DNA from: Armatimonas sp.
Lineage (GTDB): Bacteria; Armatimonadota; Armatimonadia; Armatimonadales; Armatimonadaceae
DNA length: 64,000 bases
Assembly: GCA_049840835.1 (NCBI GenBank)
Contig: JASGJG010000001.1
Coordinates: forward strand, 199,282 to 263,281
Direction: 5' to 3'
Shown here: positions 5,889-22,451 of the stretch, piece by piece
Position numbering within the stretch: the stretch's first letter is position 1
How the letters are laid out: each line of letters opens with the position of its first letter
Notes under the pieces: generated by a model
Told to the model about the DNA's origin: nothing
The model's database searches: none
What the model saw: only the letters and a program-made list of their open reading frames with translations
Program-made: the position numbers and the translations under genes

Positions 5889-5931
5889 GTTGGCAGGATT
5901 CGAAGCAGGGCATTATGCGCTTATGAGAATC

Positions 5932-6384
5932 TCAAGGAGTTCGCCACCGCGCCTGGTTGGATTGGAGCAGCACTTCTACATTTAACTCTATCGAGTTCGG
6001 TCGAGAAAGCTGCTCTGCCCGTGCAAAGATGCGTTGGGTACGTTCTTTCCATTCTGGATGCTCTATCCAGAAACTATCTTCCCGGTGTAGAACATATTCC
6101 AGTAGGTCGCCGGGATATAACTCGGCGTTGATCAGCGGCTGGCGCTCCAGCACTTCCAACGCCAGCGGTATCAGAAACTCTGTTCCGATATTCTGACCCA
6201 ACAGAATACGAAGATCCGCTGGTGTCATCTCGCCTACGGGAACGGTTCGTAGAGCATGGCATCGTCCGACAAGATGAGAGACGTAATCGTCCTCTTCAGG
6301 TGGCTCCCAGACATCGTTTTCTAGTTCGTTGAGGGTTTTTGTGCGGTCAAAAGATATAGGCTCAAGCTGCTCTTGCCTCGGCAT
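5932..6384 (-). CDS. small acidic cytoplasmic hypothetical protein (immunity-protein-like size/composition)
   Basis: 150 aa ORF at edge of low-GC island; no motif recognised. Confidence 0.4.
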   Translation of the reverse strand: MPRQEQLEPISFDRTKTLNELENDVWEPPEEDDYVSHLVGRCHALRTVPVGEMTPADLRILLGQNIGTEFLIPLALEVLERQPLINAELYPGDLLEYVLHREDSFWIEHPEWKERTQRIFARAEQLSRPNSIELNVEVLLQSNQARWRTP

Positions 6385-6763
6385 GGTCGCGATACCACTC
6401 TCGTACTCTCTCTATCATGAAATTCAGCGATTCTGGGGAGATTACTTTCAGAGCATCATTGTGCAGGATGTATCCATGGTCCATCTCGAAGCAAATAAAG
6501 AAGACTGGAAAAGCGAAGCGTTTAAAATGCTCGGTGGATTCTTTTAACTTACTTAATGAGATATCCCCCGCGTGACGAAAACCTTGGACTTCTATGCCAA
6601 AGAGCCGACCAATGTCTTGACTCTTTTCTAGAAGGGAGCAAACGATGTCCGGCCAATTTTTCTCGTCTACATCAATTAAGGAGATTTCATTCTGTCGAAG
6701 TAAGAGAATTCGACCCATATGAAAGGCACGAAGTTTTAAGAGAGATTCCTGTGTGGCTTCCAT
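6362..6763 (-). CDS. hypothetical protein, lower-GC
   Basis: 133 aa ORF, GC ~45%, immediately downstream (same strand) of the AT-rich 584-aa gene. Confidence 0.4.
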   Translation of the reverse strand: MEATQESLLKLRAFHMGRILLLRQNEISLIDVDEKNWPDIVCSLLEKSQDIGRLFGIEVQGFRHAGDISLSKLKESTEHFKRFAFPVFFICFEMDHGYILHNDALKVISPESLNFMIERVREWYRDHAEARAA

Positions 6764-6769
6764 ATGGTT

Positions 6770-8524
6770 TCATTCTTGATCAAAAAATTCAGATTTGATC
6801 GTTTCTATTGATCTTCTAAAATTCTCTAATAAATAATTTCCATCTTTTATTTCTTTCTTTAGATGATTGCTAATATAAAAGTTAATTCCTATTTCGTTAG
6901 ATGTTCTGAAGTGTCTGTACTGAGCAAGAAGATGATTGAATTGTAAGTTTTTGCTAAATGTTGAGTAGGCTTCAATGTCATCAATTGACATAACTGTTAT
7001 GCTATGCACGGGTGGTGTTGATAGCGAATCACTCATTGCGATTTGTTTGCCGAATTCAGACTGGAGATATCCTAAAATTCCCGGTGACATTATGGAAGGA
7101 TCGTAAGTGACTATTACAGGGTATATACCTCTGCATTTTTTAATATCAATCTGGTAGTTTACTATTGGTTGGCCATTGATAAGTTTATTGATGCTGTCTG
7201 ATAGCTGGCTGATGCCTTTTCTTGATTTTGGCTTTCCTATAAATCTGTCTACTACATCTTTATGTAAAATGTTAGGATCTCCTGAATATTTAGCTTGTGT
7301 TGTTAAAATAGAAGCTTTCACCTCTATGAGAATTAAAAATTCTCCATCGTTACATTCTAACAAGATGTCACAAACTTCAGCATTGTCTTTGAATTTTGGA
7401 TTTTTATAAACAATTTGGCTTTTCGATTTTAGATACTGTTCTGAAGTATGTTCTAGTATTGAATATGCGTATTCCTCTACTATTTCCCCGAAAAATGCTC
7501 TGAAATTTACTTTTTCTGGATCAGAGAGGTGGTCATTGATAGTCCAGTAAATTATATCAAAAAATGATTGATATAAAAATCCTCTGTCGTATATAACGTG
7601 GTTTTTATCAATACTTATAACTGGTGTCATTCTGAGGATTGTCATGTCGTTAATTCTAGAATGATGACCTTTAGAAAATAGAAGTGTTGATAAATCGTTT
7701 ATATCTCGTGATATTACTGCTAAACACATCTTGAAAATGTCTTTGGGGGATGTGGTGTTTGTTAAAAACAAATCTTCATTTACAATGAGTGGATCAGATC
7801 TTTCAATGGAGTGAGGGCTATATGATTCTGATCTGACAAATAAAAGAGTAAGGAACTTTATGAAGTATTCAAGACTTACCCCTGTGCATTCTAAAAATGG
7901 TTTTTCAAATGAAACGTAATTGCTTGATTTTTGTAATTTGTTTGGAATATTAAGCCAGATTTCATTGGCGCGTCCTATAACCGGAAGTGCTTGTTGACCA
8001 TAGCTCATTTCGGCGATAGGGATCATCATGGAGGCCAACTGAAACGGTTGCTGTGATGACGGAAGAGAATCATCAATTTTTGAGTTTTGAGAAAATAAAT
8101 CATTAACCATGAATAGTGCTTTGCCAAATTCAGTTAGAAATTGAGAATTGCCTTGAGCGGATGTTACTCTGGTTAGTCCGTTATTTTGAGGACATGATTC
8201 TATAGATAATTTCAAAAATAGTAAAAACTGATGACGATGGAATAATAATAAATCGGTTTTGTTCTGCTTTACAAAAGCGAAAATATTATCCTTGTAATCA
8301 GGAAGAAGAGTGTCAATAAGGCTTTTCTGAAGACGGTTATTTGATATATTGTTGTGATCTGCACCAGTAAGTGCAGGCATTATTACAGAAAGTAAACTAA
8401 TTACTTCGTATATATTGAGCTGGGATAAAATACGGATTATATCACTGTAATTTGCCTTTGATCCAGTAATATCTTCGTGTGTTATGTATGTTCGTATGTA
8501 GTCGTCAGAAGTCATAGGGTACAT
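6770..8524 (-). CDS. large AT-rich-encoded protein with PD-(D/E)xK nuclease-like motif; candidate defence/abortive-infection nuclease
   Basis: 584 aa; coding GC ~33% versus ~60% flanks; motif CDILLE..x10..ILIEVKAS fits D..ExK restriction-endonuclease-like core; AT-rich promoter-like region 8525..8610. Confidence 0.6.
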   Translation of the reverse strand: MYPMTSDDYIRTYITHEDITGSKANYSDIIRILSQLNIYEVISLLSVIMPALTGADHNNISNNRLQKSLIDTLLPDYKDNIFAFVKQNKTDLLLFHRHQFLLFLKLSIESCPQNNGLTRVTSAQGNSQFLTEFGKALFMVNDLFSQNSKIDDSLPSSQQPFQLASMMIPIAEMSYGQQALPVIGRANEIWLNIPNKLQKSSNYVSFEKPFLECTGVSLEYFIKFLTLLFVRSESYSPHSIERSDPLIVNEDLFLTNTTSPKDIFKMCLAVISRDINDLSTLLFSKGHHSRINDMTILRMTPVISIDKNHVIYDRGFLYQSFFDIIYWTINDHLSDPEKVNFRAFFGEIVEEYAYSILEHTSEQYLKSKSQIVYKNPKFKDNAEVCDILLECNDGEFLILIEVKASILTTQAKYSGDPNILHKDVVDRFIGKPKSRKGISQLSDSINKLINGQPIVNYQIDIKKCRGIYPVIVTYDPSIMSPGILGYLQSEFGKQIAMSDSLSTPPVHSITVMSIDDIEAYSTFSKNLQFNHLLAQYRHFRTSNEIGINFYISNHLKKEIKDGNYLLENFRRSIETIKSEFFDQE

Positions 8525-8610
8525 GTTGGCACCATGATTGAGATATTTCTATATCTCGCAGTTGCATATAAATGCTAGATTTTTATCTTTATTAGTATAG
8601 GGAAATCCTA

Positions 8611-13314: not shown

Positions 13315-14566
13315 ATGACATGGTCTGAACTATCCGAGAGATGGCGTGCAGAAGGTCTGCGCTATACGCAAGAAACCAATGCGTTTGTGGCGCGCGGAAT
13401 CGCCTCAAACTGGACGAGCGGAGAGCCAGAACCAACCCCAGATAGTCGAGAAGAAATCGCGGAAGCAGTGCTGGCGGAGGTACGGCGCGCCAACGATGAG
13501 GGAAACGCTGGCATACTCCGAAGCGCCTTTCCGCCTGCCTGGGAACCCTTTCATAAAACGCTAAATACTCGTGGTCAAGGGATTGACGGCGTTGTTCTGC
13601 TCCCCGACGACTCTATCTTGCTCAGGACAGCAGACACGAAGGGGCGCTATTACCGGGTATGGAAGCACTCGTATGATTGGCTTGAGGGAATCCACTATGT
13701 AGGAATAGCTCCCGATAGAAGCTGGCTGGCAGTCGCAACCTATTCCGGAGTGCAACTGCGGCGCACCTGGGAATCCTCCGTGGAGCTGCTGCTTCCCTGG
13801 TCCAGTCTTGGTTGTCCGGAGCAAATCACCCAGCTAATTCCATCTCCTAGAGGGAATTGTGCGCTGCTGGTAAACGAGCAAGGCTTCTTTATTTTGAAGC
13901 CGGACGGTGCTATACGACTGTTTGCAGCGGACAGTGACCGGGAGGAAGGTGAGGAGCTACCACTGCCGTACACGCTTGCTATGGAGCATGGTGCTATCTC
14001 CCGTGATGGCCGCTACTTTGTAGTGGGGCATCAATCGAGTAACCATGCCGTTTTCGATGAAGAGGGGAATCGGGTAGCCGATATCGGCCCGCACTGTGAG
14101 TACCCCCACTACGCTTTCTTTGACTATGAGAACGAGCACCTATTCGGCGAACTCCTGCCATTTCTATAATGGCGAGACTATCTCTGTCCCGGTAGCTACT
14201 CTAGAAGGGCTGAAGACCGCGCCTTATAAGGACGATGAGCGGATTCTGCCCTGCTCTGGGGGCGAGCGAATCTATGCCGCCGCGACTCGCTCCGGTGAGT
14301 TTATCGTGGGAGATGCCTATGGCTACGTACGTGCCTACGGGCACGATGGCAAGCTAACGTGGCAGCATTTTCTTGGGTCTACTATCACCGGCATGGACAT
14401 CTCCGCGAATGGGAAAACACTGGCCGTAGCTTCCTATGCCGGGATTGTCGCGTTGATTGACCTGGATACCGAAGCCGCTGACCCGTTCCAAATCGGCACG
14501 GCTACGCACCGGGAGCGTTTCCGTTGGCTATTCTGGAAAGGTGAGGAAAGCCCGCTGCTCTGGTAG
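13315..14566 (+). pseudogene. beta-propeller repeat protein split by a 1-nt frameshift near 14155..14170 (ORFs 13315..14169 and 14096..14566)
   Basis: Frame 1 ends ..NEHLFGELLPFL*; overlapping frame continues with sensible repeat sequence ..YNGETISVPVATLEGL..; beginning of second ORF is junk-like, indicating a frame switch rather than two genes. Confidence 0.45.
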
Positions 14567-14579
14567 GCTCCAGAGTTTT

Positions 14580-14966
14580 CTACGCTTCCTCTTCTTGAAG
14601 CCGAAGCATTTCTGTACGTAGGAATTCTGCAAAGGTATCGAAGTGGCAAAGCTGATTTTCGGCGAGCCAGCGAATTCCGGCGAAGCTGTTGGGAGAGCGA
14701 AGAGCGGCTTCGCTCTCCTCTGGAGACAATGCCCCATACTCCTCCTGGTCCGAAAAATCGCGGAAGGCAGAAGCCACCCACGGAAGCCACTCCCCAGGAA
14801 TGGGGAGATAGTTTCGGAAATAGGCCAGCTTCTGATTTTCCTCGAGAGGCTCCATAGCTTCCCAGTAGTCCATCAGGTAGGACTCTCCTTCGCCCATTCG
14901 CCAGCGAATCTCAAAGGGATCTGAGTTCGGATAGCGTACCCAGGGAGGGGGGAGGAGGTCAGTCAT
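14580..14966 (-). CDS. hypothetical 128-aa protein, last gene of the RT operon (8 nt after RT stop)
   Basis: ORF MTDLLPPPWVRYPNSDPFEIRWRMGEGESY..; W-rich; tightly coupled to RT gene; possible retron accessory/effector. Confidence 0.5.
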   Translation of the reverse strand: MTDLLPPPWVRYPNSDPFEIRWRMGEGESYLMDYWEAMEPLEENQKLAYFRNYLPIPGEWLPWVASAFRDFSDQEEYGALSPEESEAALRSPNSFAGIRWLAENQLCHFDTFAEFLRTEMLRLQEEEA

Positions 14967-14974
14967 GGTTATGT

Positions 14975-16372
14975 TTACACAAACGGGTTCTGGCGCTGGA
15001 TTTTCTCGGCCTCCTCAGGCCGCGTGGAGCGAATCCAGGCGATATAGCCACGGGCATAGGCCATGGAATCACGGCCTATCTTCGCGCTCATGGCATCCGG
15101 TCCCTCAGTTCGGCAATGATGCATGAACGCCCGGAATTTACGAAGGTCCTCACGAGAGACACGAGCCTGTCCTTCGAAACCCTGGTTTACGACCAGGCCT
15201 GTTACGCTCTGGCGCTGGCGAGTGCGAAGTACCTGGGTTTTGTCTTCGTTGATAACGAGGTTCTCCTCTGTAACGATCTTGCGAACCAGCGTGAGCAATG
15301 CGCCCACAGGAGCATCCGGCTTTTCGTGAGAGAAGGTCAGGTCGTCGGCGTAGCGGGTGTAGACAAACCCCAGGCTTTTCGCGGCGCCTTCGATGCGCGC
15401 ATCCAGCCCCAGGCAGAGCCAGTTCGTCAGCGCTGGCGATGTACAGGCACCCTGTGGCGTGGCACGCTCACCCACAGCGACGAACTTGCGCTCGCCATCG
15501 AAAGTAATACAAACGCGTGGAGAGTCGGTGCAGAGCAGGGCCAGCAGGGTGGCCACGCTCTCGCCATAGCCCAGCTTCTCGAACATCCCTTTCACGCGTC
15601 GCCAGGTCACGCTGGGGAAGAAGTCTTTCAGGTCTGTCTTGACTACCACAGCCTTGTCTACATGGGGCGCGGCGTTTTTCTGCACGGAGCAACCGGGCGC
15701 AAACGCCATTGCCGCCTGGTGCGGCGTGAGCGTTTCTAAGATCTCTTTGAGAATCCAGCTCTGCGCCACCCGCAGGGTGCGTTTGGGCGACGAAAGCACC
15801 CGTAGCCCCCCCTTTTTCTTAGGAATCGTAAAACGGGAGTAGTGCCCGGTTTTATCCGCGCGGCTCTGATAGCTCAGCCAGGCCAGCTTCTCGGGGGGCA
15901 GGCCAATAGCAGTTGCCAGCTCCTCAGGAGTGTTTACGATAGGCAGTCCACGCTTCTGCAGCGCTTCGGCATCGCTGGTAGTGCCGCTCAGGCCGCCGGA
16001 GACACCGACGCCCAAGTGTGGCAGGCTTTTCTTGCGCCAGGCGGCATCTGCTTCTTTCTTCTTCTGGCGCTCAGCGGCGCGAACTTTGGCTTTCTCTGTA
16101 CGCTCAGCACGCACACGCTCGATACGCTTGCGCCGAATCTCAGCCAGCAGGCGCGGTACATCGCCGCCCTCGCTGATTTCTTTTTCAATCTGGCGTAGCT
16201 CACGGCTGAATTTGGCGCGCTCTTCATAGAGCGGCTTCAACGTAGCTTCTATCTCGGCATACTCGGCGGCTTTTTCTGGGGATGGTGGCCAGTAGCCCAG
16301 CCGGGTCATCTCTTCTCGGATGAACCCGGACTTGCCCAGCTCGCCCATACGCTTTTTCTGATCTCCGGTCAT
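14975..16372 (-). CDS. retron-type reverse transcriptase with ~170-aa N-terminal basic coiled-coil extension
   Basis: 465 aa; motif 1-2 FTIPKKKGGLRVLSSP; retron-specific NAAPHV + DLKDFFPS (cf. Ec86 NATPHI..DLEDFFPS); motif 4 PQGACTSPALTN; motif 5 YTRYADDLTFS; LVINEDKT; conserved VTG (RQSVTGLVV). Confidence 0.9.
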   Translation of the reverse strand: MTGDQKKRMGELGKSGFIREEMTRLGYWPPSPEKAAEYAEIEATLKPLYEERAKFSRELRQIEKEISEGGDVPRLLAEIRRKRIERVRAERTEKAKVRAAERQKKKEADAAWRKKSLPHLGVGVSGGLSGTTSDAEALQKRGLPIVNTPEELATAIGLPPEKLAWLSYQSRADKTGHYSRFTIPKKKGGLRVLSSPKRTLRVAQSWILKEILETLTPHQAAMAFAPGCSVQKNAAPHVDKAVVVKTDLKDFFPSVTWRRVKGMFEKLGYGESVATLLALLCTDSPRVCITFDGERKFVAVGERATPQGACTSPALTNWLCLGLDARIEGAAKSLGFVYTRYADDLTFSHEKPDAPVGALLTLVRKIVTEENLVINEDKTQVLRTRQRQSVTGLVVNQGFEGQARVSREDLRKFRAFMHHCRTEGPDAMSAKIGRDSMAYARGYIAWIRSTRPEEAEKIQRQNPFV

Positions 16373-16412: not shown

Positions 16413-16536
16413 CCAGGACGGTAAACGTCCGGCTATAGGCACTTCGTGCCGTCTCCCTGCAGGAGGGGTTTGGCCTGATTTGGCCGCAGGCCACGGCGGG
16501 CTTGTCCGCCACATAGCCGGACGTTTACCGTCCTGG
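16413..16536 (-). ncRNA. perfect 24-nt inverted repeats flanking a 76-nt multi-hairpin core, 40 nt upstream of RT start: candidate compact retron msr-msd (a1/a2-like repeats) or RT-operon regulatory structure
   Basis: ccaggacggtaaacgtccggctat (16413..16436) is exact reverse complement of atagccggacgtttaccgtcctgg (16513..16536); core contains small hairpins ggcgg..ccgcc, ggcc..ggcc, ctcctgcaggag. Confidence 0.45.
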
Positions 16537-16557: not shown

Positions 16558-17733
16558 TCACGCCTTGCCTTCTTTCATATCCAGGAACTGCTGTTCGGTG
16601 AGCACGGGCACGCCCAGCTCGTTGGCTTTGGCTAGCTTGCTTCCCGCTTTGTCCCCTGCTACCAGGTAGGTGGTGTTCTTGCTCACGCTGCCGGAGGCTT
16701 TTCCGCCCAGCTGCTCCACGATAGACTCGGCTTGCTCACGGGTGAAGAGGGTGAGTGCTCCTGTGAACACAAAGGTCTGCCCGGTGAAGTCTACGGTCTT
16801 GCCCGATGCCCCTGTGGCAGTCGCTTTCGCGCCGATAAGGTCGCGGCTTGCCAGGGCGATAGCCGCGACAATATGGGCGCAGGGGCCTTTGCGCAGTTTC
16901 TCGCGGCGGAAGAAGGCGCAGGTGCAGGAGGCGAACTTGGCGCGGCCATCGGCATCCAGGTCCAGAGTGACGATGAACTTGCGCTCACGCTTGCTCTCGC
17001 CCCCTCGCACCGAAGCACGAAGTCGGGTGATGCCTTCGCCGGGGGCTCCGAAGAACCCGCCACCATCTTCATCCTCCTCTTCGCCGGGTTTCAGGAACGT
17101 TACGCCGCCAGAGTTCACGATACGGGCAGCCAGGCGAGACGGCTGGCTTTCATCGTCCTCTTCGGGTGCGGGGAATGGGAGGAGCTGGCGCCAACGGTAG
17201 CGGTTAGTGGGCAGGTCGAACATCGCGCGACCCTGGCGACAGAGGCGCTGAAGCGCAGCGGTCGCGGCCTCTCGGGATAGGTCGGAGGAGCTGAAAAGTT
17301 CTTCGGGGGTAAGCGCCAGACGCTTTTCTAAAACCTCGGCGGCAGCCGCGACATCACCTTCACTGGCACCACCTACAGCGGCGAGTACATCGAAGCGAGC
17401 GGCGGCGGACCAGTCGTTTTTGGTCCACCCGGAGATACCTAAATCGAACCGATGGCCCTGCAGCGTGACGGACCAATAGGATGGCATGCCGGTGCCGAGT
17501 AATCGAACATCTACCCGGTCGGCGTGGGGAAGCAGGTCGATCAAGGTCATCAGGCGGCGGCGGCCCCACAGGCGGATTTCCTGCGCCGCGCTACCCTGCC
17601 AGCGGTGGGTGTGCTCTTTGATCTCTATTCCCCACGGCTCCACGATGACTTTGGGATACTCACCCGGCTCCAGAATAAACTTCAGCGAGCGAGGGCTTTC
17701 TTTCTCTCGCTGCCCTTCCAGCACGGCCAGCAC
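16558..17733 (-). CDS. SWIM zinc-finger + C-terminal BRCT domain protein
   Basis: 391 aa; SWIM CxCx(n)CxH: [22 protein letters not shown]; C-terminus [69 protein letters not shown] closely resembles LigA-type BRCT. Confidence 0.75.
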
Positions 17734-17738
17734 GTCAG

Positions 17739-18539
17739 CTAGGGTATCTGGCGAGAGCGTGACATCGGTGCCGGGAAACGTGGCGGCGGACTGTACCTGG
17801 AGGAAGCCGCGAATCCAGGTGGGGGCAGGTCGATTTTCTTTTCGTAGCGCTCGCCCGCACCCGTCGCTATAGACACGCCGCCCGAACCTACATTGAGAAA
17901 TGCTGGGCGATAGCTGCGCACGCGCCGAATCTCATCGGCCAGCGCACGGGAGTAATCCACATTGGTGGTACCGAAGACAGTCTCGCCAAATGTATCTAGC
18001 TTTTCAAAGGGCACCGTCACGCGGCCATAGCTGGACTCATCGATAGAGAAGACCTCGAAGACCACAGCATCCGGGTGCACGGAAACCACCGGGTCTAAGA
18101 CCCACCAGGCGTCTGAGTCGTTTTTATGAAGCCAGGCGAAGTACTCCCCACGCTTTTGATAAAAATCCGAAGTTTCGGTCTTGCGCTCCAGGGGCTGAAT
18201 ATCTCGGTCCAAATCCTTCAGAGTCTTCCGAAGGGCATCACGGCGATCCATGAGGCCAGGCACGCGCTTTAGAAACTCGCCGCGCTCGGCTTGTAGCTCT
18301 TCTAAGTAGCGTGCCTGCACCCAGTTCTGGTAGGCCGTGTGGTCTTTCTCTTTGCGGCGCAGATCACTGGTCACAGTGGCATAGAGCGCCAGCATGACCC
18401 TGGCATAGGCCCTGCTGTCCTTGATCTGTGCGCTAAGCTGCACGCCGGGGCGGTGTAGCTCGGCGGAGACAGACATCTTCAGGCCAGAATTATCCCAGGT
18501 GGCGCTGGATGGTTTGGCATAGGCTTGTGTGACGTTCAT
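17739..18539 (-). CDS. hypothetical 266-aa protein within RT operon
   Basis: ORF translationally coupled on both sides (4-nt overlap with upstream gene, 5-nt gap to downstream); no family recognised. Confidence 0.5.
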
Positions 18540-21500
18540 TGAGCTATCTCCATTCCGTCGATGACTTCTCCGGCAAGGGCGCGCTTAACTAGTTGGCTCA
18601 GCGCCCACTCGGCATCTTTCGGCGAAGTCTTCTGCCGGGCAAGTACGAGCAGGGCGGCAGTGTCCATGGTCGGGCGAGCTTCTTGCCGCGCTTTGATTTT
18701 CTCCTTAGCTCGGCGTGCTCGGCGTCGGGTTTTGAGTACAGCAGCATCGAAGGCAGGCGCATCGATTTCCGCACCGGTCTCCGCCACGAAGTCCTGCATC
18801 TCGGGGTCGTCGTGCTCCAGCAGGGAGGTCAGTATCTGTTCGGCGGGCAGAGTTGCCTGTCGCGCTGTCACAAACTCCCGGCCCCGGGCACGTACGGAGC
18901 GGGCCGGACTGTCGCAGAGCGCCAGCGCCGCGCCATACTCGTCCAGACCACCAGGGGGCAGGTTATCGAAGTAGCCCGCGCCGAGCTTGATCGCATCCGG
19001 TACTTCGGACTCTAATAAGTGCAGCGCGAACGGCATAGTGAGTGGGCGCTTAGCGACCTCGGCAACTCCGATAGCACGAATTTCGCTGAGGGAATGCGTA
19101 GCCGCGAGAAGGCGCAGGCTATCGCTCTCACCAATCATCTCCTGGTGCCGCTCAGCCCAGCGACCCAGGAGCGGACCGAAGGCGACGGCTCGGATACCCA
19201 GCAGCACCTCGCCGTCTGTCAGACCGAGTAGTGTGTTTGCGAACTCGTCGTCATTCAACAAGCGGGCTTCCAGGACTTCGCCGCCCGCTTCTGGTAAGGC
19301 GCGTTCTACGGCTTCCCAGAAAGGTAGCAGGCGAATACCTTCCACCAGGTTCTGCAAAAGCCCGCGGCGCAAGCGCCCCCAGCTTGCATCGCTGGCTGCC
19401 GCACTCAATCGGAGCACTACATCAAGTGACAAGGTCTGGCTCAGGCTCTTGAACGTTTTGGCATCTAAAGCCGCCACTAAGAAGGGGCGCTCCTGCAGTG
19501 CCTGCTGGAATTCCTCATTGGGAATGTACTTCGCCAGTAGTGCCAGTGCGTGTGGCGAGGTCATGGCAGTTTCCAGGGAACTTGTGAGCACATTCGCGCT
19601 TAGAAGCGCGCGCCAGACTATAGGGGCAGCTTCGGCGGCGACTTTATGCACCGCCAGGAAACGCCACCAGGCCGCCCGCGTGAAAGCGCCATTGTTATCG
19701 TTGTTAATCAGCTTCCACTGCCACCACCAGACATTGGAGTTGCCTCCTTTGCGCATTACCTCAGCGAGGACATCCAGGGCCGCTTCACGCGCCTCTACGT
19801 TCTTGACACCTTCCAGATCCGAGAGCCAGTCTTCGACTTCGCCATGCTTGAGGGTTCTAAGGCGGGCCAAGGCCAGTTCTCTAAGAGCGCCGCCGCCATC
19901 CAGCAGCATCACAAGCCAGCCTGATTGCATCTGCGGCCCCGCGACCTCAGGGAAGCGCTCTGCCAGAAGCGCTAGAGCGGCTCGCTCACGGGCAGAGGTC
20001 GGCGTCTCGCTCAGGTGAGAGGCCAGGGCTTTGCAGAACTCGGCGGGGTTCTTGGTGCTGGCTATGCCAGGCTCCAGTTTTGCCCGATTCGCCCGCCCAG
20101 CACGGAACCACACATGGCCCAGAAGTGCGGAAGAGAGCGCTGTGCCATTCTGCACTTTTTGAATCGCTACTCGCACGGCCAGCGCCTGAAGCAAGGCAGA
20201 TGGTGAGGCCAGGTCGGCTATCAGCGCGGCATCTGGCACGGAGGGAAGCTTGCGCTTGGCGACGCGAAGCTGGCGAGCTACCATTTCACGGGCGCCCCAA
20301 CCGGCTTTCGGATCGGTGTAGATGCTCTCGGAAAGCTCCGGGCGAGCATCCCAGGCTTCTGGACAGAGCTCCTCGCGACGACGCAGATTGAGGCTTGGAC
20401 CAGGAGTTAGTGAGACCACACCACGCCCGTGGTGCGCCTGTCGCAGCCGTCCGCCGCCACCGTAAATAACCTCTGCCAGCGCCCAGTTGTGATTCAGGTC
20501 GAACCCATCCGAGGCTTTCAGCGTGGCATGAGCCAGCTCCACATAGGCGGTGCGACCAGTCTTGGCCAGAGTTTTCAGCAAGCGCCGGGTGCGGCGCTTC
20601 ATGTAGCCAATCGTTGGACCGCTGGGAGCGGCGCCCAACTGAACCGGGCGTGCTTCCTGAGAAGCGAGAGGCTGTTGCCACACGCGCCCTCCCTGCCAGT
20701 TACCGGTACAGACAATCAAGCCGTTGCCGGTACAGACCGCTCCCTCAGGACCGATACGCCAGCGCTCTATCTTGGGTACGCCTTTGTCATCCACGAAGAC
20801 ACATCGGCTGTTATAGGAAGTCGCGAAGATAGCACGTCGTCCCAGGGTGATTGCTTTGACCTCACCACTGATATAGTCCAGGGTGCACTTGCCAGTCTCT
20901 GTCAGAGTGTCACCGCTATAGGAATAGACATGGCAGGTACGCTCCCACCGGTTGGATTCCGGCAACACAGCAATAAAGCCATCACCTCCAATAGCAGCCT
21001 CGGGCTTGATAGTAATAGTGTTGCTCTGTTTGGGCCGGGCCGGATCGGAAAGATCGATAAACGAGATTCCCTCAGCGCGGGGAAGGCCCTTTAGGGAGAG
21101 ACCACGACCACTCTGGTGAACAATAACTCCACCTACGGCGCTCCATAAATTCGCGCCACTATCCAGGCTCAGCGCAGACTGGCGGGTCAGTACGCCACCC
21201 TCTGAGAGGGTATAGACCAGCAACTCTGGGCTTTTGCCACCTGTAAGAACGCAGAGAAGCGAACCGCTTCGTACAACCGCTTTTAGCTCCGGCGCGTCTA
21301 CTTTCTCTGCAGCAACTCGCGTTACATCTTTGCCAGAGACTTTCCAGGTTATGAGCCAGGTACCGGTTTTATCTGACTGCCCGGCAATACAGTAAGAACC
21401 CAGAGGGACAATCTGCTTGACTTCCGCCCCTATATCTTTTGAGGCTAAGCGCTCTGTTTTCAGGCGCTCCGCATCTAGCTGATAGACCTGAAGGTTTCGG

Positions 21501-21787
21501 TCTCGCCAGCCATCGCCTCCCAGGCCCCAGAGAAGCCGACCATCTGCGGTTTCGAGAATGGGCAGGTAGCGTGCGTTCTTGAACTTCAGCGCTTCTGGGG
21601 TGGCATAGGGATCGGCCTGCGCGGCATCTAGGCGGGCAATGAGCGCTCCTAGGCGGGAAATATCTTCGCTAGGGTTTGCTTCTAATTGCTTGTAGAGAGA
21701 TTTCAGAGTCCGCCAGCTTCCATATTTCAGCGGAAGGGTGCGGATAGCATCGGGAGTAGGAAGGGCGTCGTTGGGCATAGCTCTCAC
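18536..21787 (-). CDS. 1083-aa repeat protein: N-terminal beta-propeller-like region, C-terminal alpha-helical (ARM/HEAT-like) repeats; first gene of RT operon (GTG start at 21787 or ATG at 21778)
   Basis: Long ORF with G/W-rich beta-strand repeats in first ~450 aa and Leu/Ala-rich helical repeats afterwards; no enzymatic motif found. Confidence 0.6.
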   Translation of the reverse strand: MRAMPNDALPTPDAIRTLPLKYGSWRTLKSLYKQLEANPSEDISRLGALIARLDAAQADPYATPEALKFKNARYLPILETADGRLLWGLGGDGWRDRNLQVYQLDAERLKTERLASKDIGAEVKQIVPLGSYCIAGQSDKTGTWLITWKVSGKDVTRVAAEKVDAPELKAVVRSGSLLCVLTGGKSPELLVYTLSEGGVLTRQSALSLDSGANLWSAVGGVIVHQSGRGLSLKGLPRAEGISFIDLSDPARPKQSNTITIKPEAAIGGDGFIAVLPESNRWERTCHVYSYSGDTLTETGKCTLDYISGEVKAITLGRRAIFATSYNSRCVFVDDKGVPKIERWRIGPEGAVCTGNGLIVCTGNWQGGRVWQQPLASQEARPVQLGAAPSGPTIGYMKRRTRRLLKTLAKTGRTAYVELAHATLKASDGFDLNHNWALAEVIYGGGGRLRQAHHGRGVVSLTPGPSLNLRRREELCPEAWDARPELSESIYTDPKAGWGAREMVARQLRVAKRKLPSVPDAALIADLASPSALLQALAVRVAIQKVQNGTALSSALLGHVWFRAGRANRAKLEPGIASTKNPAEFCKALASHLSETPTSARERAALALLAERFPEVAGPQMQSGWLVMLLDGGGALRELALARLRTLKHGEVEDWLSDLEGVKNVEAREAALDVLAEVMRKGGNSNVWWWQWKLINNDNNGAFTRAAWWRFLAVHKVAAEAAPIVWRALLSANVLTSSLETAMTSPHALALLAKYIPNEEFQQALQERPFLVAALDAKTFKSLSQTLSLDVVLRLSAAASDASWGRLRRGLLQNLVEGIRLLPFWEAVERALPEAGGEVLEARLLNDDEFANTLLGLTDGEVLLGIRAVAFGPLLGRWAERHQEMIGESDSLRLLAATHSLSEIRAIGVAEVAKRPLTMPFALHLLESEVPDAIKLGAGYFDNLPPGGLDEYGAALALCDSPARSVRARGREFVTARQATLPAEQILTSLLEHDDPEMQDFVAETGAEIDAPAFDAAVLKTRRRARRAKEKIKARQEARPTMDTAALLVLARQKTSPKDAEWALSQLVKRALAGEVIDGMEIAQ

Positions 21788-21827
21788 CGAACTGGGGAAG
21801 TACCTTCAGAGGGTAGCTATTTTTGTC

Positions 21828-22060
21828 GCTACTATCTCCCCGAGGACCGGTGACGGCCACTGTAGGAGCCGGACGGACAAGTAGTGTACCGTCGGTGGTG
21901 GACGTGTCGGATCAGCGCTATCGACGGTACACTACTTGTCCGTCCGGCTCTGAGTCGAGACGACATCCGGTGGCGTGAAATCAGCTTCACGGCAACCGCT
22001 GCGAAACACAGCGTGTGGGTGGCAGCAAGCTGCCTCCCGTGCTAACGATGTATCCACCCT
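21828..22060. ncRNA. structured repeat unit A (candidate ncRNA, possibly retron ncRNA on minus strand) immediately upstream of the 1083-aa gene
   Basis: Second copy 348 bp away (unit B); 29-bp perfect stem 21866..21894 / 21922..21950 enclosing conserved loop ggtggacgtgtcggatcagcgc; further small conserved hairpins; stem sequences differ from unit B by fully compensatory changes. Confidence 0.5.
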
Positions 22061-22175
22061 CTGAAGTTTTCCCGAAGGGGATTGTCTCCCCGTCGAGTTT
22101 CCCACTCGGATTTCTTCGGGGAATCCGGAAAGTCCTTGTTGGAAATCGCACAAGAAATTCCAAAGGCAGTATTTC

Positions 22176-22402
22176 GCTACTATCTCCCCAGGGACCGGCG
22201 GTGGCCACTGTAGGAGCCGCGGGGTTCAATCGCGGCCCTGGATGGGTGGACGTGTCGAATCAGCGCCTGTCCAGGGCCGCGATTGAACCCCGCGGCTCTG
22301 AGTCGAGACAGCGTCCGGTGGTGTGAAGTCAGCTTCACGGCGACTGCTGCGAAACACAGCAGGGAGAAGGTGGCAAGCCACCTTCCAGTGCTAACGATAC
22401 TC
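22176..22402. ncRNA. structured repeat unit B (tandem copy of unit A with covarying stems)
   Basis: Same flanks gctactatctcccc..ggccactgtaggagcc and ggctctgagtcgagac..gtgaag.cagcttcac..gctgcgaaacacagc; long stem 22214..22241 / 22271..22298 has different sequence but same structure; small stem ggtggcaagccacc vs ggcagcaagctgcc also covaries. Confidence 0.5.
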
Positions 22403-22451
22403 CTGCCTTTGGAATTACATGCTTCTTCGGGTGAAAGACCGGGAATTCCTG

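Follow-up and report, generated by a model that had tools for sequence, protein, structure and literature searches.

In a 64,000-nucleotide stretch of the genome of an Armatimonas sp. (hereafter the window), an open reading frame (ORF) on the minus strand (16558..17733, 391 aa) was described in a first-pass annotation as a SWIM zinc finger fused to a DNA-ligase-type BRCT domain, inside an operon with a reverse transcriptase (RT). The locus thereby raises three questions: what kind of system the operon encodes, whether this ORF is a complete gene, and what a BRCT domain would recognize in such a setting.

Regarding the first question, we classify the operon, by the sequences of its proteins, as a type XIII retron in a metagenome-assembled genome (MAG) of Armatimonas sp.; retrons are bacterial RT systems that produce small DNA molecules. 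This classification agrees with the RT-operon setting given in the first-pass annotation, and is reflected in matches to the PADLOC models RT_XIII, SWIM_XIII and HEAT-ARM/WGR_XIII. On the minus strand, the operon opens with a tandem pair of ncRNA units; a partner gene comes next, and the genes for SWIM-BRCT and then the RT close it. The RT (14975..16372, 465 aa, with an N-terminal extension) matches RT_XIII with E 8.7e-147 over 455 residues, outscoring all other RT models of PADLOC, and Pfam RVT_1 with E 3e-22; it carries the YADD and VTG motifs, and among solved structures it comes nearest to the Ec86 RT (E 2e-41). The partner gene (18536..21778, minus strand, 1080 aa) has a stop that reaches 4 nt into the start of the SWIM gene, and its product is 100% identical to GenBank QM758_00945 of an Armatimonas sp. 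MAG. It matches the PADLOC models WGR_XIII (E 6e-20) and HEAT-ARM_XIII (E 1e-14), and is laid out as N-terminal helices, a beta-propeller (approximately residues 70-370) and a HEAT/ARM-type alpha-solenoid (387-1068). Its AF2 model has a mean pLDDT of 86.5, and Foldseek searches with this model returned proteins that combine a propeller with a solenoid, e.g., IFT-A, clathrin and nucleoporins. The HEAT/ARM solenoid of a type XIII partner was therefore confirmed, with a beta-propeller instead of a WGR domain. As neither Pfam nor the model showed a WGR domain in the window's partner, the PADLOC "WGR_XIII" label reflects a shared solenoid and basic region.

These features can be set against the published description of type XIII, in which the accessory protein (cluster 114_1) combines a CxCx12CxH SWIM finger with a winged helix and a DEDE pattern, and usually follows a HEAT/ARM partner, which in the main cluster has a WGR-like domain (PMC7736814). 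Like the described type XIII retrons (Mxa1/Mx162, Mxa2/Mx65, Nex2/Ne144 and Sau1/Sa163), the window's system has an RT of the same clade (clade 10), the acidic DEDE pattern, the winged helix and the C-terminal SWIM finger (PMC7736814), as well as a large upstream HEAT/ARM partner; its ncRNA, structured and with inverted repeats at its ends around a long hairpin, resembles theirs in outline. Unlike them, it has a LigA-type BRCT domain at the C-terminus of its accessory protein, a beta-propeller partner without WGR, and an ncRNA that lies upstream of the partner rather than beside the RT and is duplicated here. The system is thus of a known kind, in an undescribed variant marked by the BRCT tail, the WGR-less propeller partner and the duplicated upstream ncRNA.

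Between the SWIM-BRCT and RT genes, the spacer (16413..16536, minus strand) is itself structured, with a perfect 24-bp inverted repeat around small hairpins (z -7.0); this structure occurs only in the window's close clade, and in most relatives the RT follows 3-20 nt after the SWIM gene. We weighed a short ORF just past the RT (14580..14966) as a possible fourth component but dropped it, as it has no tblastn match in any of 83 related loci and no family match. A scan of the operon for sigma-70 promoters and terminators gave nothing above chance on the coding strand, and no recognizable toxic enzyme domain was found in the RT, SWIM-BRCT or partner protein. The locus lies outside any recognizable defence island, and is flanked by dnaE and metabolic genes.

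Regarding the second question, the ORF turned out to be the 3' fragment of a longer gene. It is listed in GenBank as MGC4042353.1, 'SWIM zinc finger family protein', and is preceded on the same strand by an ORF of 266 aa (17739..18539; GenBank MGC4042354.1), which is the 5' fragment. The two divide the 509 positions of the PADLOC SWIM_XIII profile between them, positions 1-195 matching the 266-aa ORF (E 7.6e-61) and positions 227-501 the 391-aa ORF (E 2e-83). In a three-frame translation, the upstream frame decays into a Pro/Ser/Arg-rich read-through where the downstream frame turns meaningful, with the switch located at GACCTGCCCCCACCTGG; the final ~28 codons of the 266-aa ORF are out-of-frame read-through, and the true frame of the 3' fragment runs upstream as far as 17825. 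The lesion itself maps to a run of CCCCC on the coding strand (17821..17825, minus strand), where relatives have 6 bases (CCG CCT or CCG CCG) and where the window is one base short compared with three close relatives. One added C at this site yields a single protein of 660 aa. Over 110 intact homologues of 640-690 aa match it from end to end (100% of its length), at 53-96% identity. The annotated start of the 391-aa ORF corresponds to residue 270 of this restored protein, within a folded domain. By alignment, then, the two annotated ORFs are one gene of ~660 codons (16558-18539, minus strand). Against a relative at dS ~1.1 (L003; against L001, synonymous sites are saturated), dN/dS is 0.037 in the part upstream of the break and 0.014 in the downstream part, and the BRCT-encoding part differs by 25 synonymous and 0 nonsynonymous changes. 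Because dN/dS is 0.01-0.04 in both halves, with no nonsynonymous change in BRCT, the frame break is either a very recent event or an assembly error in the MAG. The remaining three members of the 90%-identity cluster to which the 391-aa ORF belongs (cluster 1) are intact. Pfam searches on other possibly split genes gave no sign for or against a generally error-prone assembly.

With the frame restored, the domains could be placed on the protein. The 266-aa ORF encodes an N-terminal helical hairpin and the first half of a core domain with a predicted clamp-like fold, including the acidic residues conserved in the family (D149, E162, D167, D195 and E233); the 391-aa ORF encodes the second half of that core, a winged helix, an acidic linker, the SWIM finger and, after a flexible linker, BRCT. 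The spacing of D149, D157, E162, D195 and E233 in the restored protein is that published for the type XIII accessory protein. The winged helix (17191..17394, minus strand; residues ~383-450) was delimited by the helix/strand pattern of the model; a family profile searched against the PDB gave weak matches to wHTH proteins (eS25, MarR, IclR and TFE; E 0.03-0.07), and a DprA-type winged helix was predicted at the same region by Mestre 2020 (PMC7736814). Both domains proposed in the first-pass annotation held up in comparisons with Pfam, NCBIfam and known structures, well above what chance would give. The SWIM finger matches PF04434 at residues 253-292 of the 391-aa ORF (E 6.3e-7; 29.2 bits against a cutoff of 19.6), its CxCx12CxH motif lies at 16873..16926 on the minus strand (residues 539-556 of the restored protein), and its C, C, C and H ligands are each at least 90% conserved among 116 family sequences. 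BRCT matches PF00533 at residues 316-386 of the ORF (E 2.2e-15; 72 of the 78 profile positions), which corresponds to 16573..16785 on the minus strand and residues 586-656 of the restored protein. It scores above the curated threshold, and its predicted fold is the beta-alpha-beta-beta-alpha-beta-alpha arrangement of BRCT domains. It is preceded by a linker of ~25 residues, which has low model confidence and varies in length among homologues.

The BRCT domain was said to align with that of LigA almost residue by residue, and indeed the alignment of the last 90 residues of the ORF with solved LigA structures is gapless, with 38 identities in 69 positions to 9vse and 34 in 71 to E. coli LigA (2owo). 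Across such gapless alignments, identity is 48-55% to LigA BRCTs and 37% to the RFC1 BRCT. The closest sequence matches are likewise LigA and RFC1 BRCTs (E 1e-17 to 5e-12), with TopBP1 far behind at E ~1e-5, and the NCBIfam LigA models match the 391-aa ORF solely through their extreme C-termini (E 7e-25). On this sequence evidence, we assign the domain to the LigA/RFC1 class. Aligned with LigA, the domain shows no variation among 111 homologues at its T-G, R, GG and GSK positions; of these, the T-G after beta1, the Arg in alpha1 and the Lys of GSK are what we take, from published RFC1 BRCT work, to be the positions of the 5'-phosphate pocket. Like LigA and RFC1 BRCTs, then, the domain has the predicted fold and the conserved T-G, R and GSK positions; unlike them, it is tethered to a clamp-like, winged-helix and SWIM-containing retron protein, with no ligase or AAA+ clamp loader attached. 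Because it belongs to the LigA/RFC1 class, it is reasonable to infer, by analogy, that it may bind a DNA end or nick. As a separate observation, NCBIfam gave a weak match between the BRCT domain and the C-terminal end of GapS2, an anti-phage protein (E 4e-4), which we keep as a lead only; the source paper of GAPS2 reported no recognized domains in that protein.

The SWIM protein was already known as the accessory protein by which type XIII retrons are defined (PMC7736814), and the novelty here is the BRCT tail alone. To see how this tail is distributed, we searched the BRCT-less part of the protein against 1.84 billion 50%-identity representatives, and found 514 relatives, 114 of them with E < 1e-30. 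The SWIM-BRCT combination had been called rare, which is right within the family, where 7 of the 150 best 50%-identity representatives carry BRCT, but does not convey that it is fixed in a whole phylum-level lineage. In the species genomes of GTDB, relatives are encoded at no fewer than 593 loci, and we surveyed the BRCT state of the best 80: in these, the domain occurs only in Armatimonadota (Armatimonadaceae, Capsulimonadaceae and Abditibacteriaceae) and in one unclassified MAG. Homologues from Bacteroidota, Thermoactinomycetaceae, Myxococcota, Cyanobacteria and Proteobacteria have the SWIM finger as their C-terminal end. As far as these sequences tell, BRCT is a clade-specific addition rather than a general trait of the family. 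Where present, it is well kept: the RT gene lies directly downstream in all 20 BRCT loci that extend far enough (22 BRCT loci in total), BRCT identity across homologues is 56-100% compared with 53-94% for the rest of the protein, and sequence comparison puts the domain under strong purifying selection.

Other lineages carry a different module. Pfam WGR domains occur at the N-terminus of the partner in loci of Myxococcota, Actinomycetota, Acidobacteriota and Cyanobacteria, and in a Chloroflexia-type variant (P0121, L034) WGR is inserted in the SWIM protein itself, in a loop that is acidic in the window's protein. Pfam found no WGR in the window's partner or in the partners of its Armatimonadota relatives, and the model of the window's partner likewise lacks one. 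WGR domains and LigA/RFC1-class BRCT domains are both modules that bind DNA breaks or 5' ends, as in PARP, LigA and RFC1. The end-binding state thus varies in the family: some loci have WGR at the partner, others have it within the SWIM protein, and others again have BRCT or no such module, which suggests one functional slot filled by different end-binding modules. The pattern is not strict: since Bacteroidota loci (L036, L043) and an Abditibacterium locus (L033) have neither BRCT nor a Pfam WGR in the partner, an end-binding module is not obligatory in the family. Taken as a whole, the family uses a zinc finger (SWIM), WGR and BRCT, as PARP1-type break sensors do; this is an analogy only, and differs from PARP1 in that there is no ADP-ribosyltransferase and the modules are distributed over two proteins and vary between lineages.

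Upstream of the partner gene lie the two ncRNA units, which are msr-msd-like in their layout. The distal unit A (22151..22421, minus strand) is bounded by an a1/a2-type inverted repeat (22151-22169 and 22403-22421) and contains a perfect 29-bp hairpin at 22214-22298 (MFE -151 kcal/mol, z -10.9). The proximal unit B (21804..22066, minus strand) has inverted-repeat arms at 21804-21819 and 22051-22066 and a perfect 29-bp hairpin at 21866-21950 (folding z -8.2). The units are spaced 348 nt apart, each with its own 16-19-nt inverted repeat and three short 5' hairpins, and are 82% identical, their stems and terminal arms diverging in sequence yet staying complementary. Unit B is the one conserved in relatives, at the same position upstream of the partner, with identities of 92% (L003) and 83% (L001). 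In an alignment of 8 ncRNA sequences, 35 of the 65 consensus pairs show compensatory changes. An nhmmer search placed a unit ahead of the partner gene at 20 loci, one of which (L002) shows only its 3' end, at a contig edge, and relatives have up to 3 units per locus. In other words, this is an ncRNA with terminal inverted repeats and strong covariation, upstream of the partner and without an Rfam match: at both gathering and E-value thresholds, Rfam returned no retron RNA family, and gave weak miRNA-precursor-like matches on the hairpins alone. The same ncRNA type occurs in loci with and without BRCT, which neither supports nor excludes a contact between BRCT and msDNA.

Regarding the third question, we propose that the intact ~660-aa protein would act as a chain of nucleic-acid-binding modules, in the order helical hairpin, clamp-like core, winged helix, acidic loop, SWIM finger and tethered BRCT. 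It would serve as the DNA-binding or sensing subunit of a complex of RT, msDNA and partner, rather than as a nuclease, and its BRCT tail would add recognition of a DNA 5'-phosphate end, a nick or a single-strand/double-strand junction, as in LigA and RFC1. On balance, we consider it probable that the retron accessory protein is such a multi-module sensing subunit, with BRCT for 5' ends, nicks and junctions. As the end-binding module is interchangeable within the family, we lean towards ends of invader or damaged DNA as the target of BRCT, rather than the retron's own msDNA. By analogy with characterized retrons, the output of the system would be anti-phage; a role in repair or housekeeping is possible, given that the locus is outside a recognizable defence island, that type XIII tends to be vertically inherited and that no toxic enzyme domain is recognizable.

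The own msDNA is nevertheless the alternative target that survives best, though we think it unlikely. Here, BRCT would be a structural anchor on the base of the msDNA hairpin, its DNA/RNA junction or a debranched 5'-phosphate, holding the clamp-like subunit on the RT-msDNA complex, such that damage to the msDNA releases the subunit and triggers the response. The perfect 29-bp stem of each ncRNA unit would supply a ligand of duplex plus junction, the order of ncRNA, partner, SWIM gene and RT is constant in BRCT loci, and in solved retron complexes of the Ec86/Eco1 type the msDNA does scaffold the effector. However, relatives with the same ncRNA family lack BRCT (L034, L036, L037, L023 and L027), msDNA normally has a 2'-5' branch at its 5' end in place of a free 5'-phosphate, and the long tether of variable length suggests a module that reaches out rather than a fixed interface. 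We regard it as distinctly less likely that BRCT is a protein-protein module, binding a phosphorylated partner, the host replisome or beta clamp, or mediating oligomerization: the domain is single, with no tandem pair, and the LigA and RFC1 BRCTs lie far closer to it (E 1e-17 to 5e-12) than that of TopBP1 (E ~1e-5).

Our preferred reading, a sensing subunit rather than a nuclease, also depends on the nature of the core, which carries the DEDE pattern. Its predicted fold is that of a PCNA-like, two-domain clamp (17401..18101, minus strand; approximately residues 147-380 of the restored protein, spanning the frameshift), and this most unusual feature of the protein lies mostly upstream of the ORF that was first described. 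The model was made with AF2 for an intact homologue (P0001, 96% identical), using an alignment of 116 sequences, and has a mean pLDDT of 85 (above 90 over most of residues ~150-370) and a pTM of 0.76. It shows two topologically repeated domains, as in a clamp protomer, and Foldseek matched it to PCNA with E 3e-10, probability 1.0 and a target TM of 0.6-0.74. The likeness to clamps is one of predicted fold only and comes from one AF2 model: identity of the core to sliding clamps is ~10%, and sequence homology to clamps was found neither with Pfam families nor with the family profile against the PDB up to E 10, which returned weak winged-helix and BRCT matches only. Neither the SWIM core nor the partner has a relative by sequence in the PDB. 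As homology to clamps was not detected, we have not filed the core as a member of a clamp family. It also differs from PCNA, the beta clamp, 9-1-1, UL42 and UL44 in that the clamp-like fold is set between a helical hairpin and the winged helix, SWIM finger and BRCT. Conserved basic residues (R208, R323, W325-G326-R327 and R329) mark the core, with a near-invariant WGRRRL and further Arg residues on or beside its predicted helices. Since the frameshift falls between the two clamp-like subdomains, neither annotated half would be able to fold alone.

This prediction bears on another explanation, put forward with the definition of type XIII, in which the accessory protein would be a nuclease effector of the DEDE kind that derives from a transposase; BRCT would then steer it to DNA ends. 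D149, E162, D167, D195 and E233 are invariant or nearly so, and both the DEDE pattern and the link of the SWIM finger to Mutator transposases were noted by Mestre 2020 (PMC7736814); what the protein shares with Mutator/MULE and IS256-type DDE transposases is indeed the SWIM finger at its C-terminus, together with conserved acidic residues in a pattern. Unlike in those enzymes, however, the region of the acidic motif is predicted to be clamp-like and not RNase-H-like, and neither list of structure matches for the predicted core held RNase-H-like or transposase structures. On present evidence, the DEDE region is probably a clamp-like fold rather than a transposase-derived nuclease, and we consider the nuclease improbable. 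Least probable of all is that the SWIM-BRCT gene is a dead pseudogene in this genome, an ORF without function: the frame is broken at 17821-17825 and GenBank lists the halves as separate proteins, but the lesion is a single one in a homopolymer of a metagenome-assembled genome, both halves retain the low dN/dS given above against a relative at dS ~1.1, with BRCT free of nonsynonymous changes, all other cluster members are intact, and isolated frameshifts of a like kind occur in other metagenomic homologues (P0014, P0067 and P0077).

A practical point for this window is that the ORF, as first described and as annotated in GenBank, is half a gene. The wider meaning concerns the retron type. Type XIII includes the first retrons discovered, Mx162 and Mx65 of Myxococcus. 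It is widespread, being the third most abundant retron group in the SPIRE survey, and inclines to vertical inheritance (PMC7736814). Its accessory protein has hitherto been assumed to be a transposase-like nuclease; the literature that we searched held no experiment on a type XIII accessory protein, and nothing relevant on the mechanism of type XIII, on retrons with BRCT or on retrons with a sliding clamp. Abditibacterium utsteinense LMG 29911 (L017) is in culture and carries the gene unbroken, which makes such experiments feasible. The natural tandem arrays of ncRNA units also resemble the engineered "arrayed multitrons" that serve multiplex editing (PMC10370050).

The recruitment of a LigA/RFC1-class BRCT, strongly conserved in one phylum where others have WGR, suggests that the logic of the system includes recognizing DNA ends or breaks. 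The predicted clamp-like core is our most surprising result and, if the prediction is right, it changes the working hypothesis for the whole of type XIII. A tentative picture, which we rate as unlikely as it stands, is that type XIII retrons place a PCNA-like clamp subunit on or around the msDNA hairpin or an invader duplex, equipped with swappable BRCT or WGR break sensors rather than a nuclease toxin, and with one RT sometimes serving 2-3 msr-msd units. If true, a clamp-based type XIII retron would represent a retron mechanism without known precedent.

In the window and in three related loci (L042, L023 and L027), two to three complete retron ncRNA units are arranged in a natural tandem array upstream of a single operon. 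The array occupies 21804-22421 (-) in the window, L042:2283-3135, L023:2716-3170 and L027:2685-3933. Each arrayed unit has a1/a2 arms and an msd hairpin of its own sequence, with conservation in the loops and the msr portions. L001 and L003, close relatives of the window locus, carry one ncRNA unit only. We found no description of natural retron ncRNA arrays in the literature; engineered ncRNA arrays of such design are employed for multiplex editing (PMC10370050).

A second structured element, a perfect 24-bp inverted repeat enclosing four small hairpins (16413-16536, -; z -7), lies inside the 185-nt spacer that separates the RT gene from the SWIM-BRCT gene. It occurs once in the window, is partially conserved in the relatives L001 and L002, and is missing from loci in which the RT begins 3-20 nt downstream. 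On the other side of the RT, a 128-aa ORF (14580-14966, -) starts 9 nt past the stop codon; since family searches left it unmatched and none of 83 related loci has a counterpart, it is probably not a retron component. Further away, a low-GC patch adjoining dnaE (5900-8600, -; 38% versus ~57%) is probably a foreign insertion. Its genes are a contact-dependent-inhibition immunity gene of the CdiI_3 family (5932-6384) and, at 6770-8524, an ORF of 584 aa that matched no family.

Three homologues of the accessory protein from ENA metagenomes (P0014, P0067 and P0077) end in out-of-frame read-through, with two of the break sites past the acidic GAA/GAG-rich stretch and the third within the BRCT domain. 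Judged from these sequences, isolated frameshifts in the accessory gene recur across metagenomic assemblies. Within the window, two overlapping ORFs of 284 and 156 aa, in different frames of the same strand (13315-14566, +), look like another frameshift-split gene, with the break near 14140-14160; family searches gave no hits supporting this reading. If this pair is truly split, the window assembly may be error-prone.

With regard to the accessory protein itself, the window BRCT (16573-16785, -) has a weak match (E 4e-4) to GapS2, an anti-phage protein, at the C-terminal 70 positions of its NCBIfam model, suggesting that a BRCT-like module may form the C-terminal end of GapS2. The original description of GAPS2 lists no recognisable domains. 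A Chloroflexia-type variant of the accessory protein, seen in P0121 and at L034, has a Pfam WGR domain (P0121 residues 512-571; L034:8492-8698) inserted N-terminal of the SWIM finger rather than a BRCT at the C-terminus. The nearest BRCT-less relatives are from Bacteroidota (Cytophagales, Microscillaceae; L022, L024, L026, L031, L032, L035, L040, L041 and L045), and tblastn found no retron RT within these nine loci, which span flanks of at most 7 kb, several of them cut short by the contig end. L023 has ncRNA units and no detectable RT. The Bacteroidota loci suggest that some family members may operate without a neighbouring RT, or with a distant one.
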